Of a DNA stretch of 64,000 nucleotides, positions 21,306 to 63,368 are shown piece after piece. A program made the translations under genes and the position numbers. Positions within the stretch are counted from its first letter, which is position 1. Every line of letters begins with the position of its first letter. The DNA comes from Octopus vulgaris (lineage: Eukaryota): NCBI GenBank assembly GCA_951406725.2, contig OX597815.1, forward strand, positions 166,532,001-166,596,000. The letters are read 5' to 3'. Under the pieces are notes generated by a model. It saw only the letters and a list, made by a program, of their open reading frames with translations, did not search any database and had not been told where the DNA came from.

Positions 21306-21456
21306 TAAAATAAATTACTTTGCCGATACTGAACTCATTAGAAATAGCAGCCTTTTTTAAACTATTTCTAATACTTAAAGTATTAGAAATAGTTTAAAAA
21401 AGTTTTTTAGCTGCTATTTCTAATGAGTTCAGTATGCGGCAAAGTAATTTATTTTA
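21306..21456. repeat. Near-perfect AT-rich palindrome (~70-bp arms, essentially no loop)
   Basis: taaaataaattactttgccg-atactgaactcattagaaatagcagc..ctatttctaatactt|a|aagtattagaaatag..gctgctatttctaatgagttcagtatgcggcaaagtaatttatttta, between (TA)n tracts. Confidence 0.92.
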
Positions 21457-21586
21457 CTAAGCCCTTTTATATAATGTAATAATTTGAATTCGCCTTAAAT
21501 GGTCCCTTTGCATACTGAACACTTGGTAAAATTGATTAATAATTATTTAATTTTACCCTCAATTGTTGAAATATATATATATATAT

Positions 21587-22270
21587 CATTATCATTTAAC
21601 ATCTGCTTTCCATGCTTGGATGGTTTGACTGAGGACTGGCGAGCCAGATAGTTGCACCAGGCTACAATCTGATTTGGCAGAGTTTATGCAGCTGGATCCC
21701 CTTCCTAATGCCAACCACTTCAAGACTGTTGTGGGTGCTTTTACGTGCCACCGGCATGAGGGCCAGTCAGGCGGTACTGGCAGTGGCCACACTCAAAAGG
21801 TGTTTTTTACGTGCCACCTGCACAGGAGCCAGTCCAGTGGCACTGGCAACGACCTTGCTCGAATGTTGTCTTTCATGTGCCAGTAAGGCGAAGCTGGCAA
21901 TGATCATGCTTGAATGGTGCTTTTTATGTGCCACCAGCACAGGGGCCAGTCAGTGGCCCTGGCAACAATCATGCTTGGATGGTGCTCTTAGCACTCCACT
22001 AGCACAGATACCAGTCAAGCAGGGCTGTCATCGAATTCGATTTTGATTTCACTTGCCTCAACAGGTCTTCGCAAACAGAGTTTAGTGTCCAATGAAGGAA
22101 AGGTACGCATAAGTGGGCTGGTTACACCCCTGGCATAGGACACGGGTTATGGTCTCACTTGGCTTGCCAGGTCTTCTCAAGCACAGCATATTTCCGAAGG
22201 TCTTGGTTACTAGTCATTGCCTCAGTGAGGCCTAATGTTCGAAGGTCGTGCTTCACCACCTCATCCCAGG
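21587..22270 (-). mobile_element. RTE LINE 3' fragment (ORF end + 3' UTR), related to the 9394-12812 element
   Basis: The minus-strand translation KKTWDEVVKHDLRTLGLTEAMTSNQDLRKYAVLEKTWQAK* matches the LINE C-terminus RKTWDEVVKHDLRTLGLTEEMTRDRDLWKCAVREKTRQDK*. The UTR continues to a GAT tail near 21590. Confidence 0.88.
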
Positions 22271-59440: not shown

Positions 59441-62400
59441 CAAAGGCCGTGAAACTTACATCGACAGCACGATATGTATTTGCATATTCAAATCAAAATC
59501 ACCTACATTTATGGGCCCCATCTGCCAAAAATCGCCTGGACAAATGCTGGTATCAGATCATCACAGTTACCAACAAAACCGCAGATTGAAATATCAGAAA
59601 TTTGCTGCTCAAAGAATCCATTCTTAATAAGTTAACACATGCCATCCTTTAACAACCGTAAGGAATAAAACAAGAGTCCACTTTCTAATCTAGCGTCTCC
59701 TTTCGGCTACCGTGTAACACAGTTCTTACTTCCACAATTTCTTCACACAGACATAGCATCAAATTCTTGACAAGCAATATCAAATGAAACCATTTTCAGT
59801 CCTAATTTCCACACTTCGATAAAACATGGTCTTTGTATGTGGTAAAGGCGTGAAGCAGCAACGAAGGCAGGCTTCAGTTTGTCTTCACACTTTGATAAGT
59901 GGTATATTTACCCGAAATATTTTACAATTATTAAATGTTTTTAAGGTAAAAGTTCAATCGTGTTCTGCTTATTTTATCCTCTCACAGATGAATGCCAAGG
60001 TTTCTCATGCAATGTTAAATATAGCTTTACAGAAATCGTATTAAACGTCAACGTTGATGATCACTAGCAGTTTATTTGCGTAGAAAGTCATGCAGTTCTA
60101 CAGAATGCCAAGGACAAACTCAAAATGAAAAGAAATGGTTTTGATTTGGCATTGTCGCAAACTCAGCACTTTAAAATGAGAACTTTCTCTACTGAAGACA
60201 AGGGGAACTACTCTAAAGAGATCAAAGGGAAGTAATCTCATGTGAAATAATGGGTATACGTAGAATTTGACAGTTTGGATCGAAAATTTTATAAACTGAA
60301 TGATGAGGTGATATCTTCAAAGAATAGAAACAGAGTGATGACAAGCACATGTTCTGTGACAAAGTTTGTAGATTTATTTACAGGTCATAATTTGGAGTCG
60401 AAATTATCTAGAGAATGCAGAATCAACGCAAGTACTTTCATGAGCGAGAGAAAGCCGTTTGACACAACAATATTGTTACCCGTTTTTCTCCTTTGCACAA
60501 AGGTTGTTCATATCTTACTATGTACTTATATTACCCAAAGCATAGGATATAGCATCAAACATATAGCCAGACAGAAGTGCAACATATAAGTAGAGTTGAA
60601 AAAAACCGCATGACACAAAAACAAAAGCAAAGTAAAAGTACGTAACAAAATTCCTTACAGGAGCTATATATAACAAAAATTCTAAGAATTGACTAGGCCT
60701 CCTTTACAAACCGGATCTAAAGTTCTGAATGGCAAAGTTTCATAATCAATAGGGTGCGGTAATTCGATTGGCGATTGTAGCCATGTGTGTAATTACAAGG
60801 CAAAGAGCTAAAATAAATAGGTTCGCCCACTGTTAAAATCAAATACATATCTAGCATGATGGTTTTCATATTGAGTCAGGCCAACAAACAGTTAAGATGA
60901 AAGTTCCACAAGCAAAACATATAGAACAGTTAAATTGCAATGGGATGAAATAAGGACATATGTTTTTAACCCCTTGAGAAAAAAATAACATAAGGTTTAT
61001 TTCAGATCTTGAATGCACATCTATCAGCTTTTTATGACACTTTACAGAAGCTACTATACATACCAGGAAGTCACTACACAGCTGGGGCCTTTCGTACACA
61101 ATTCGTGCAGCCTTTGCGCAATCCATGAAACTCTTCATTGGAAATTAAAATTTGAAGGTTTCGATCAGGGTTGTTATAGAGGAGAAAAACATTAAAGGAA
61201 GAAAACAAAGGGAAATTGAGAAGTGTTGGGTTGAGATGGAAAGAATCATAAGACAGTATGGAAAGAAGCGAGAATGTTCTGTGCCTGCTCGGTTATAACG
61301 AAGCATTTTTATCTAGAATCATAAATGCTTTTCCAGGGGTGATAGAGGCGGTCTTTTCCATGCAGAACAGCAGGAGGAATGCGCTTAAAAACTCGAAATT
61401 TGAATTTTTTAGTGCATATAGAGAAAGATATTGTCTCTCTCTTCTATTTAGAATATTCTAAACTTTTCAGTGATGTACAAGTTACATTTACAATCGTACC
61501 AAATGTATTTACAAGCTTTTCTATGAAAATCTTAACGAAGATACACCTGTCGTAACACAGCCAATTTTCAACTCAATAAGTGCCTCGAAATGAAGCTGGA
61601 AGTGGATTGGAAGGTCTTTAATTCATCGATCTATCAGCTGCGTGATATATTTTGAAAATGAGCTTGGATTTCGCTTATCAATGTGTCTGTGTCTAAAGTG
61701 AAAGACAGGTGTAAGTTCGTACTGTGCTATTAATGTCTGAAGCACATCTACGCAATACAGCTACTCCATTTCAAAACACTGTTAAGGGGACAATAATCTG
61801 TGTTCCTTCAGTTGCACTTCTACTTGCTCTTAGATTCAAGGTTATATCAACAAGACAATTTATTATTTTCAACTTCGTACTCATAATTTTATGGGTGAAC
61901 TGTATAATTATACTATTGAACTTTTAAGCTTATTCATATTATGCCTGTACTATGTAGTACAGAGAATCTATCATCCCTGTACAATATAATGTTAGCTTCC
62001 CTTACTATATACTTCTGTATATTTAAGATGAAAAGACTATAATGGTTTCAAATTTTGGCACAAGGCAAGGTTTGTGAAGAGGGGCTAAGTCGATTACATT
62101 GGCCCCAGTGCTCAACTAATGCTTATTTTATTGACCCCAAAAAGATGAAAGGCAAAGTCGACCCCGGTGGCATGTGAATTCCGAACATAAAGACAAACGA
62201 AATGCAGTTAAGCATTTTGACCAGCGCGCTAACGATTCTGCCAGCTCCTCACCGCTTTAACAGTTTCTTTGTGGTGCTTCTACACGGAATATCAGTGTAG
62301 AAGTATCATATTAATTGTTTACCCTAAGTCAATTCTGATAGAGAAGAACTACAATGAAAGCGAATCTAGCCGTGACTGTTTCGTCTTATTGCTATGTAAA

Positions 62401-62717
62401 GCGAGTCTAAGACCAAATTTAACTCTTTAATAATATTGGTTTAAAACGTTGGCACAAGGCCAGCAGTTTTGGTGGAGAAGCAGTCGATTACATCGACCCG
62501 CATGGCCCAACTGGTAATTATTTTATAAACCTTGAAAGGATGAAAGACACAGTCGACTCCGGCAGTATTTGAACTCAGAACGTGAAGTCGGAAGAAATGC
62601 TGTTAAGCACTTTATCCGGCAAGGTGATGATTCTACCAGCTCAATTTTATCTAGCACAGTGGTTCATAACCTGGGGTCCGCAAAGATTGTACTAGGGGTC
62701 CATGAACTAAATTTAAA

Positions 62718-63368
62718 AAAAGAACAAATCCACCACCCACAATACAGACAGTTACAGGTTAGAGAACACATAGAAAGGTATGCTAAGAATCTTAATCCTA
62801 ATTTCCTAATTTTCCCCTTCTATCAATGTTCACAGAACACCTCAATGCAACAAAGAATGAATAAAGAGGCAACTTTCATCAAAAAATATCTTCCCCAACT
62901 AAATATGAGCACATAACAATACAGAACACTACTAACCTTTCAATTAATACCACTAACCCCCATTCATTCCTTACATCATTTACATTACACTTCTTTATCT
63001 AACCTAATTGCACCAAATCCAGGACTACTTACCCCCCTTACACATAATCTTTTTTCTCAGGGACTAATAGACCTGACACCGTTCATTAATCGGTGTGCAT
63101 TTAAACCAATGGATAGTTGTATTCAAAGCAATGATTAGTAACTTACGAAACCGGTATGCTTTTGAATCTCTTTAACAATTCACAATAATGACTTTTATTA
63201 CTTTTATTCCTACCTCAGTTCATCTAATTGTATATATCTTTCGTTACTTTTCGTAAAAAGCCTTTACTTTTTTTGATTTCCAATGTTCATTTCCACTTAT
63301 TTTTCTTACCTTCCCCTTACCTTACCACGTGTAGTTTCTATTTCCTTTTTGTAAGATATTTCTATCAT
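62718..63368 (+). mobile_element. Penelope-like 3' fragment (GIY-YIG C-terminus + pLTR-like tail) ending in (TA)n
   Basis: KEQIHHPQYRQLQVREHI..FLIFPFYQ..RMNKEATFIKKYLPQLN resembles the PLE endonuclease C-terminus (H....F.I.....R...E..FI....P.LN). A decayed hammerhead motif lies at 63121-63167. Confidence 0.7.
63121..63167 (+). ncRNA. Decayed minimal type I hammerhead motif
   Basis: attcaaagca-aTGATtA-gtaacttac-GAAAC-cg-GTA-tgcttttgaat. Helix I has 10 bp with one bulge, helix II is gta/tac, helix III is palindromic (ACCGGT) and the site is GUA. There are two substitutions in the CUGAUGA box. Confidence 0.6.

Follow-up and report, generated by a model that had tools for sequence, protein, structure and literature searches.

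A hammerhead motif with a swapped 3-8 base pair among Penelope-like element relics in a 64-kb stretch of the Octopus vulgaris genome

We analysed a 64,000-nucleotide stretch of the Octopus vulgaris genome (contig OX597815.1 of assembly GCA_951406725.2, positions 166,532,001 to 166,596,000, forward strand), here called the window, in which an earlier note had picked out hammerhead ribozyme-like motifs, fold-backs and fragments of Penelope-like elements (PLEs). Each main site in the window is a separate repeat family, denoted A, B, C, D and E (Table 1). Taken together, the set consists of mostly ordinary PLE relics with one variant hammerhead core, that of the family E motif at 63131.

Table 1. 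Features of the PLE-related sites in the window, in window coordinates
Position	Strand	Feature	Basis
21306..21456		Near-perfect palindrome derived from another repeat's end, next to (TA)n	Arms 100% complementary
27771..28024	-	Family A (352-nt retrozyme-like unit), 5'-truncated copy	Alignment of 30 copies
28002	-	Half-motif	Palindrome ACTCGAGT
28026..28147	+	Inverted 3' partner of the family A copy, (TA)n at its end	122 nt, 93% complementary
28221..28376		Family B fold-back: 3' end 28221-28320 (-) fused to a plus-strand hammerhead 3' half	Relatives 70-92% identity
28332	+	Half-motif	Palindrome ACTTCGAAGT
51584..51680		Possible decayed U3-A8 pieces, opposite orientations	Minus-strand UUGAUAA..GAAAC by eye
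51663	+	Half-motif	Palindrome ACTAGT
55485..56004	+	Family C (509-nt retrozyme-like unit) fold-back	Alignment of 22 copies, arms
55713	+	Half-motif	Palindrome ACCATGGT
58672..58698	-	Decayed family D hammerhead at the homologous position	Relatives; the window copy failed the descriptor
58950..59250 (limits by eye)	-	Frameshifted GIY-YIG remnant, second distant Neptune-type clade (family D)	Protein matches
62707..62916	+	GIY-YIG C-terminal remnant and stop, Neptune-type PLE family E, 5'-truncated	tblastn, profile
63100..63121	+	Decayed 22-nt tandem duplicate of the hammerhead 5' half	Subfamily trait
63122..63165	+	Complete minimal type I hammerhead, A3-U8 core, helix III ACCGGU	Descriptor, family alignment
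63147	+	Half-motif	Palindrome ACCGGT
63166..63867	+	Remaining pseudo-long terminal repeat (pLTR)/tail of family E to about 63365, then (TA)n tract	Family 3' ends, Tandem Repeats Finder

The family E element and the 3-8 pair of its hammerhead

The endonuclease remnant of family E is matched by the open reading frame (ORF) of copy L031 in a tblastn comparison (E=2e-31) and by a profile built from 120 homologues (independent E-value 4e-16). The L031 ORF contains RVT_1 and GIY-YIG domains, both over cut-off, and the same layout of a reverse transcriptase (RT) with a C-terminal GIY-YIG domain is seen in 991 homologues, mollusc proteins among them. The linker before the GIY-YIG domain reads CX4CxxC (CGRSNCGTC-type). 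There are 10,476 first-look candidate relatives of family E in the genome, 150 of which were scored. The 3' ends of family E copies fall into two clusters, +159-167 and +207-209 relative to the predicted cut, which match the PLE 'tail' that has been traced to two internal RT start sites (PMC11167929). An adjoining microsatellite was present at the 3' end of 33 of 37 copies (background 9.9%), an inverted partner in 8 of 79, and the 22-nt duplication upstream of the window hammerhead also in L004, L006, L011, L025, L029 and others. Family E is an endonuclease-positive (EN+) PLE with a single ORF, 5' truncation, an inverted partner in some copies, fixed 3' ends and an optional tail. The linker motif and the microsatellite targeting suggest that it is Neptune-type, an assignment to be read with the facts that Nematis has the same linker and that our tree carries no named references.

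The motif at 63131 is the sole complete one found in the window by a descriptor that requires core, stem II and helix I together. In this motif A3 is at 63131, U8 at 63136 and G12 at 63147, with the predicted cut after A17 at 63156, and the family core reads AUGAUUA instead of CUGANGA. As expected of a minimal type I hammerhead, the motif has helix I, a stem II with G10.1-C11.1, G12-A13-A14, A15.1-U16.1 and an H17 that is not G; a subfamily with UAAA in place of GAAA departs from this pattern. Among 40 copies picked by protein alone, the 37 that could be scored had A-U at the 3-8 pair in 31 cases, G-C in 4, A-G in 1 and A-A in 1. None of the 37 had C-G, the cores reading AUGANUA or GUGANCA. 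A genome pattern in which positions 3 and 8 were left free gave 303 matches compared with 10 in the control, and a hand count of the 100 listed gave 83 A-U, 10 G-C, 7 unpaired and no C-G. When A was barred at position 3, the 16 matches were 13 G-C, 2 G-U and 1 U-C. In addition, a second family whose helix I sequence differs yielded 13 A-U and 2 G-U among 15 matches (control 0). A3-U8 is the family norm of E and not decay.

The paired state of the motif is also conserved. Across 33 aligned copies, 91.5% of the cells were paired, with 19 double-sided changes versus 5.8 when shuffled and only 28-41% pairing when the strands were slid, and the 3-8 Watson-Crick pair was present in 32 of the 33. Helix I covaries at two of its pairs (AU 23 / GC 9 and GC 23 / AU 7), while helix III varies in length among copies with its palindrome mostly kept. 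An unconstrained fold of two copies of the motif produced the hammerhead dimer at -19.3 kcal/mol, versus -11.0 kcal/mol for two monomers.

In a protein tree of the endonuclease (45 rows, relatives without names, midpoint root), from which L401 and L410 were dropped because of their short length, the A-U and G-C copies group together (98/92) next to a U-A branch, and the whole falls within a clade of sequences from this genome (97/96). The U3-A8 branch holds relatives of an intact 781-aa family, and L289 and L291 have U-A cores. The nearest relatives from other organisms in the tree are C-G. The descriptor recovered 18 motifs from 86 relatives from other organisms, with none in the control: 14 were C-G, 2 U-A, 1 A-A and 1 A-U, the lone A-U motif being in L342, a distant PLE. 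With the U3-A8 sister clade and the A-U second family, all four Watson-Crick 3-8 pairs are present in one genome. The 3-8 pair probably moved from C-G to U-A and to A-U, with G-C found inside the A-U family, a pattern suggesting that selection preserves the folded core yet tolerates any Watson-Crick pair at 3-8.

Two side observations concern PLE proteins. The family with many full 781-aa ORFs (L289, L294 and more) is probably young; its 3' region is long and repetitive, and its hammerhead is of the U3-A8 type. Animal-type PLE ORFs also turned up in bacterial metagenome-assembled genomes (L393-L398 and others), where they are probably host DNA in the bins.

Published work allows these cores to be set in context. 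Like the PLE hammerheads of Cervera and de la Pena 2014 (PMC4209133), the family E motif lies 3' of the GIY-YIG ORF, has a short helix I and a palindromic helix III and is predicted to act as a dimer, and the element likewise occurs as many single truncated copies with some opposite-strand pairs. Unlike those motifs, which have C3-G8 or, in Schistosoma Cercyon, U3-A8 (the supplement rows compared show CUGA or UUGA cores), family E has A3-U8 and G3-C8, lacks the extra base between A9 and G10.1 and has a stem II of 1-2 pairs in some subfamilies. The natural core variants of Perreault et al. 2011 (PMC3088659) include U3-A8 covariation and U4C (C at position 4), both of which occur in this genome, whereas A3-U8 and G3-C8 are not among the variants described in the accessible part of that paper. 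As an engineered change, G3-C8 is known to give a partial rescue (PMC11167929, PMC9901934). In the literature searched, natural A3-U8 or G3-C8 cores were unreported, though Lunse et al. 2017, on small PLE hammerhead variants, and Przybilski and Hammann 2007, on exchanges at the 3-8 pair, might describe or quantify A3-U8; nor was there a match for octopus, Penelope and hammerhead together. Penelope elements are among the repeats annotated for octopus in a 2026 paper whose main text contains neither the word hammerhead nor the word ribozyme (PMC13282606). Within that literature, what appears new is the A3-U8 and G3-C8 cores. Earlier papers already report hammerheads in PLEs, the palindromic helix III, pairs on opposite strands and the U3-A8 variant (PMC4209133, PMC3088659).

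As an EN+ PLE, family E also resembles the Neptune elements of Craig et al. 2021 (PMC8557442) in its RT followed by a C-terminal GIY-YIG, CX2-5CxxC linker, 5' truncation, inverted 5' partner, optional tail and microsatellite targeting. Its tail, about 46 nt, differs from the 30-40 nt described there.

Motif density and the other families

The census counted half-motifs, defined as GAAAC-palindrome-H with palindromes of at least 6 nt, against 100 block-wise dinucleotide shuffles. The window holds 8 half-motifs versus a shuffle mean of 2.1, and 8 was reached in 0 of the 100 shuffles. Three GAAAC-palindrome-H half-motifs lie beyond the interval covered by the earlier note, at 8885 (+), 6973 (-) and 1083 (-). 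An evenly spaced 800-kb genome sample, controlled by 12 shuffles and by the reversed sequence, gave 71 half-motifs versus 23.6 in shuffles. By arithmetic this predicts ~5.7 per 64 kb versus the 8 observed, and the half-motif density of the window is about average for the Octopus vulgaris genome. The motifs exceed the shuffled expectation, but the view of the earlier note that the window is unusually dense in them is not supported. Its broader proposal of many such motifs genome-wide holds, in that the sample contained 15 complete hammerheads compared with 0 in the 12 shuffles and 0 in the reversed control. These comprise 13 C3-G8 motifs (8 of them U4C) and 2 U3-A8 motifs, at a genome rate of ~1 complete motif per 53 kb, with 10 of the 15 belonging to one family. 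The sample contained none of families A and E and one locus of C, and the copy numbers given for these families are first-look candidate counts only.

None of the window's 92 Rfam matches at E<=5 was to a hammerhead family, the gathering score not being reached. With a strict CUGANGA descriptor, counts did not rise above those of shuffles, which is explained by the truncation of the window copies together with the variant core. Whole hammerhead families are missed by standard descriptors and Rfam.

Two further observations on hammerheads elsewhere in the genome stand apart from the window sites. Among the complete hammerheads of the sample, the most frequent kind is represented by 10 copies, 8 of which have a CCGACGA (U4C) core (L222, L238, L244, L252, L264, L271, L272 and L276). 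In several hammerhead families (L249, L275, L279, L016, L291, L004 and L168), 45-100 nt separate the core from GAAA, and the palindrome of helix III is particular to each family; short-loop descriptors would miss them.

The positions listed in the earlier note largely reproduce, with GAAAC-palindrome-H present at 28002 (-), 28332, 55713, 63147 and 51663, and the site at 58670 having neither an intact core nor GAAAC. As hammerheads these sites fare less well. When a complete core and helix I are looked for, the window copies at 28023, 28332, 55713 and 58670 all lack the combination: that at 28023 (-) has no helix I 5' strand, and those at 28332 and 55713 are coreless 3' halves, leaving 63131 as the complete one. 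The inverted repeats reported at three motif sites are present, with arms at 27818-28147 and 55485-55933 and opposite-facing pieces at 28225-28376 recognised by blastn, and so is that at 21306-21456. Both GIY-YIG remnants upstream of motifs were likewise recognised, at 62707-62913 and 58970-59134 (-). As the earlier note proposed, (TA)n tracts here harbour a number of different Penelope-related lineages whose helix III is palindromic. The link to PLEs stands for E and D through their GIY-YIG coding sequence, and A, B and C have no linked autonomous partner.

Families A and C are non-coding. Copies arranged as direct head-to-tail dimers have a period of 352 in family A (L057) and 509 in family C (L096), and the longest stop-free frames in the two dimers are 81 and 67 aa. 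A search for the family E PLE protein in 90 A, B and C loci gave 0 matches. In many dispersed copies of both families, the sequence upstream of the hammerhead is the same as the sequence past the 3' end, that is, the units are circularly permuted. Their cores are canonical, with U4C in some A copies, and their GC contents are 44% (352-nt unit) and 32% (509-nt unit). The 3' end adjoins a microsatellite in 14 of 28 A copies and 24 of 26 C copies (background 9.9%). Inverted partners accompany up to 10 of 29 A copies and 14 of 29 C copies, the C count possibly including short self-palindromes, and the inversion points vary from copy to copy.

In the window, the family A copy has a CUGAUGA core at 28023, helix III ACUCGAGU and C17 at 27991, the helix I 5' strand being lost; its inverted repeat pairs 27818-27939 with 28026-28147 (122 nt, 93%). 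The family A monomer folds far better than shuffles (z=-7.5), and an intact copy, L050, folds without constraint into the hammerhead dimer, which the window copy does not. Contigs spanning the head-to-tail joint of family A were considered as evidence of circles or cleavage and dismissed, since the joint is the intact hammerhead of genomic copies. The arms of the family C fold-back are 55485-55639/55778-55933 (89+66 nt, 91-92%). This copy starts inside loop II at about 55643, so that its core is absent, with GAAA at 55713 and A17 at 55724; in intact family C copies the core and helix I lie about 80 nt upstream of GAAA. A bantam microRNA precursor is found at 53464-53546 (+), scoring 68.2 bits against a gathering score of 61, with the family C hairpin ~2 kb downstream.

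Families A and C fit non-LTR (long terminal repeat) retrozymes in being non-coding head-to-tail units with one type I hammerhead each. They share with the retrozymes of Cervera and de la Pena 2020 (PMC7229834) and Li et al. 2026 the ~300-500-nt non-coding unit, low GC, the single type I hammerhead per unit, the occurrence of monomers and dimers, and PLE-like ends. They differ in that family C has ~80 nt between core and GAAA and that A and C are known here from genomic copies, not circular RNA. Li et al. 2026 (bioRxiv 10.64898/2026.07.22.740005) derive retrozymes from PLE pLTRs. These circularly permuted units of two families, together with the A3-U8 core, are the two most informative facts at the locus, and both had been overlooked in the earlier note.

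Family B is older. Its plus-strand piece has GAAA at 28332 and helix III ACUUCGAAGU, and the opposite facing of the two pieces at 28225-28376 rests on blastn comparison with relatives, the pair being absent from the 5 longest repeat pairs. A fuller motif with a CCGAUGA (U4C) core is found in the relative L114. Family D is known from the endonuclease end only as far as coding evidence goes. Its 55-aa piece at 58970-59134 matches 103 other places at E<=0.1, and its relatives read CxxC..LYIGETG..F.EH; the family E endonuclease profile did not detect this remnant. The homologous place in the D relatives L406, L409, L410 and L412 holds a canonical core, CUGACGA..GAAACGUU. A DNA route to relatives of 58560-58760 was rejected, as it returned simple-repeat matches only, and the protein search succeeded. 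Around the possible U3-A8 pieces, 51560-51760 has two weak relatives only and no inverted repeat was found. The palindrome at 21306-21456 has 13 blastn matches among the examined loci, with no hammerhead call there from either the motif scan or the descriptor.

Proposed origin and alternative explanations

We consider it probable that the sites are separate insertions of PLE ends and of small non-coding units that likely borrow PLE enzymes, with the A3-U8 motif at 63131, as the family norm, predicted to be slow, dimeric and probably helped by protein. Nearly all genomic copies are inert, including at least four of the five main window sites. If published PLE work is a guide, the GIY-YIG endonuclease would nick AT-rich DNA and the RT would begin copying at internal positions, which here lie about 160-290 nt downstream of the hammerhead; two 3' ends and the 'tail' would result. 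Early termination with an inverted second copy would then leave fold-backs, often minus half the ribozyme. In tandem transcripts, pairing of two hammerheads by way of their palindromic helix III might allow them to excise RNA of unit length, which could circularise and may be recopied. Excision and circularisation of unit RNA is what we propose to explain the more-than-unit copies of A and C. PLE ends, retrozyme-like units and TA-tract fold-backs are in this respect a new instance of published patterns (PMC4209133, PMC8557442, PMC7229834).

Several observations weigh against this interpretation. The copies are kin, so that the counts at 3-8 reflect few independent swaps and not dozens, and the G-C copies are not resolved as a single clade in the tree. 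Single-strand folding of the E motif equals that of shuffles (z=-0.04), and G10.1-C11.1 as aligned is broken in 11 of 33 copies. UAAA replaces GAAA in 38 of 40 genome matches of one E subfamily, with A-U kept in 39, which means either that G12 was lost or that a base was inserted after it; this subfamily includes L020, L031-L033, L035, L037, L039 and L040, some copies having long ORFs. Complete pairwise mutagenesis rescued the 3-8 pair by the G-C swap only (PMC9901934), 8 of 9 Xenopus retrozyme dimers failed to cut (bioRxiv 10.64898/2026.07.22.740005), and hammerhead cleavage was unnecessary for insertion in vitro (PMC11167929). The missing autonomous partner of A, B and C counts on the same side.

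Some of these points bear on an account with the same origin in which the A3-U8 motif no longer cuts and persists as a folded structure that the PLE protein grips or through which RNAs pair, its core eroding. The low activity of non-G-C swaps at 3-8 in mutagenesis (PMC9901934) and the fixation of UAAA in a successful subfamily both favour it, as does the anole element, in which insertion in vitro proceeds without cleavage and the cut site yielded no RNA ends (PMC11167929). However, in the family alignment U4, G5, A6, A9, A13, A14, A15.1 and U16.1 are invariant or at least 90% conserved and H17 is never G, the core is kept across families with endonucleases about 55% identical and with differing helix I, and the 3-8 pair belongs to the catalytically active fold (PMC3884650). 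We regard such an account as unlikely, though it deserves some weight. The earlier note had favoured the idea that the fold-backs are functional hairpin elements, either ribozyme-bearing units like miniature inverted-repeat transposable elements or a source of double-stranded or small RNA. In its favour, transcripts of the arms (120-155 nt, 91-93%) would form paired RNA (-232 to -247 kcal/mol), and about 2 kb separate the family C hairpin from the bantam precursor upstream of it. Nevertheless, the inversion itself broke the hammerhead in three fold-backs, the join deleting half the ribozyme, only a minority of A, C and E copies have an inverted partner, and the layout is a described by-product of PLE insertion (PMC8557442), which the differing inversion points also fit, so that a function for the hairpins is very improbable. 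Least probable of all, in our view, is that A and C, instead of being mobile RNAs, are pieces of autonomous elements that have escaped notice, or else small satellites that multiplied as DNA. Dimers are indeed scarce (1 clear for A, few for C) and no specific PLE protein is linked to them; against this stand the circular permutation of many dispersed copies, the fixed 3' and ragged 5' ends and the adjoining microsatellites.

Returning to the interpretation of separate PLE-derived insertions, published mutagenesis predicts low cleavage activity for A3-U8. The anole PLE hammerhead cut only with the PLE protein, and its G3-C8 double mutant partly restored cutting (PMC11167929). It is tempting, if doubtful, to go further and propose that a Neptune radiation has used all four 3-8 pairs, one subfamily altering GAAA, with the element's protein propping the fold, and that protein-dependent ribozymes have been missed by CUGANGA searches. 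Were this true, the family would be a natural mutant series on the role of the PLE hammerhead, and some 'hammerhead-less' PLEs may hide such cores. PLE hammerheads cut weakly, required protein in the one element assayed and could be spared for insertion in vitro. A family fixed for the poorly scoring A3-U8, with G3-C8 and U3-A8 kin in the same genome, allows catalysis to be compared with fold.

Neighbouring repeats

Other repeats are also present in the window. A near-intact long interspersed nuclear element (LINE), which we take to be RTE-type, occupies 9337-12165 (+) and encodes an apurinic/apyrimidinic (AP) endonuclease, an RT and an internal PHD-like finger, with one stop near 10975. At 25680-25790 the 3' end of another repeat lies between (TA)n tracts, with CUGAAGA at 25709 and 14 blastn matches among the examined loci. 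Finally, at 33765-34333 a 164-bp unit is repeated 3.4 times in tandem; the unit has relatives in a dispersed repeat resembling a short interspersed nuclear element (SINE).

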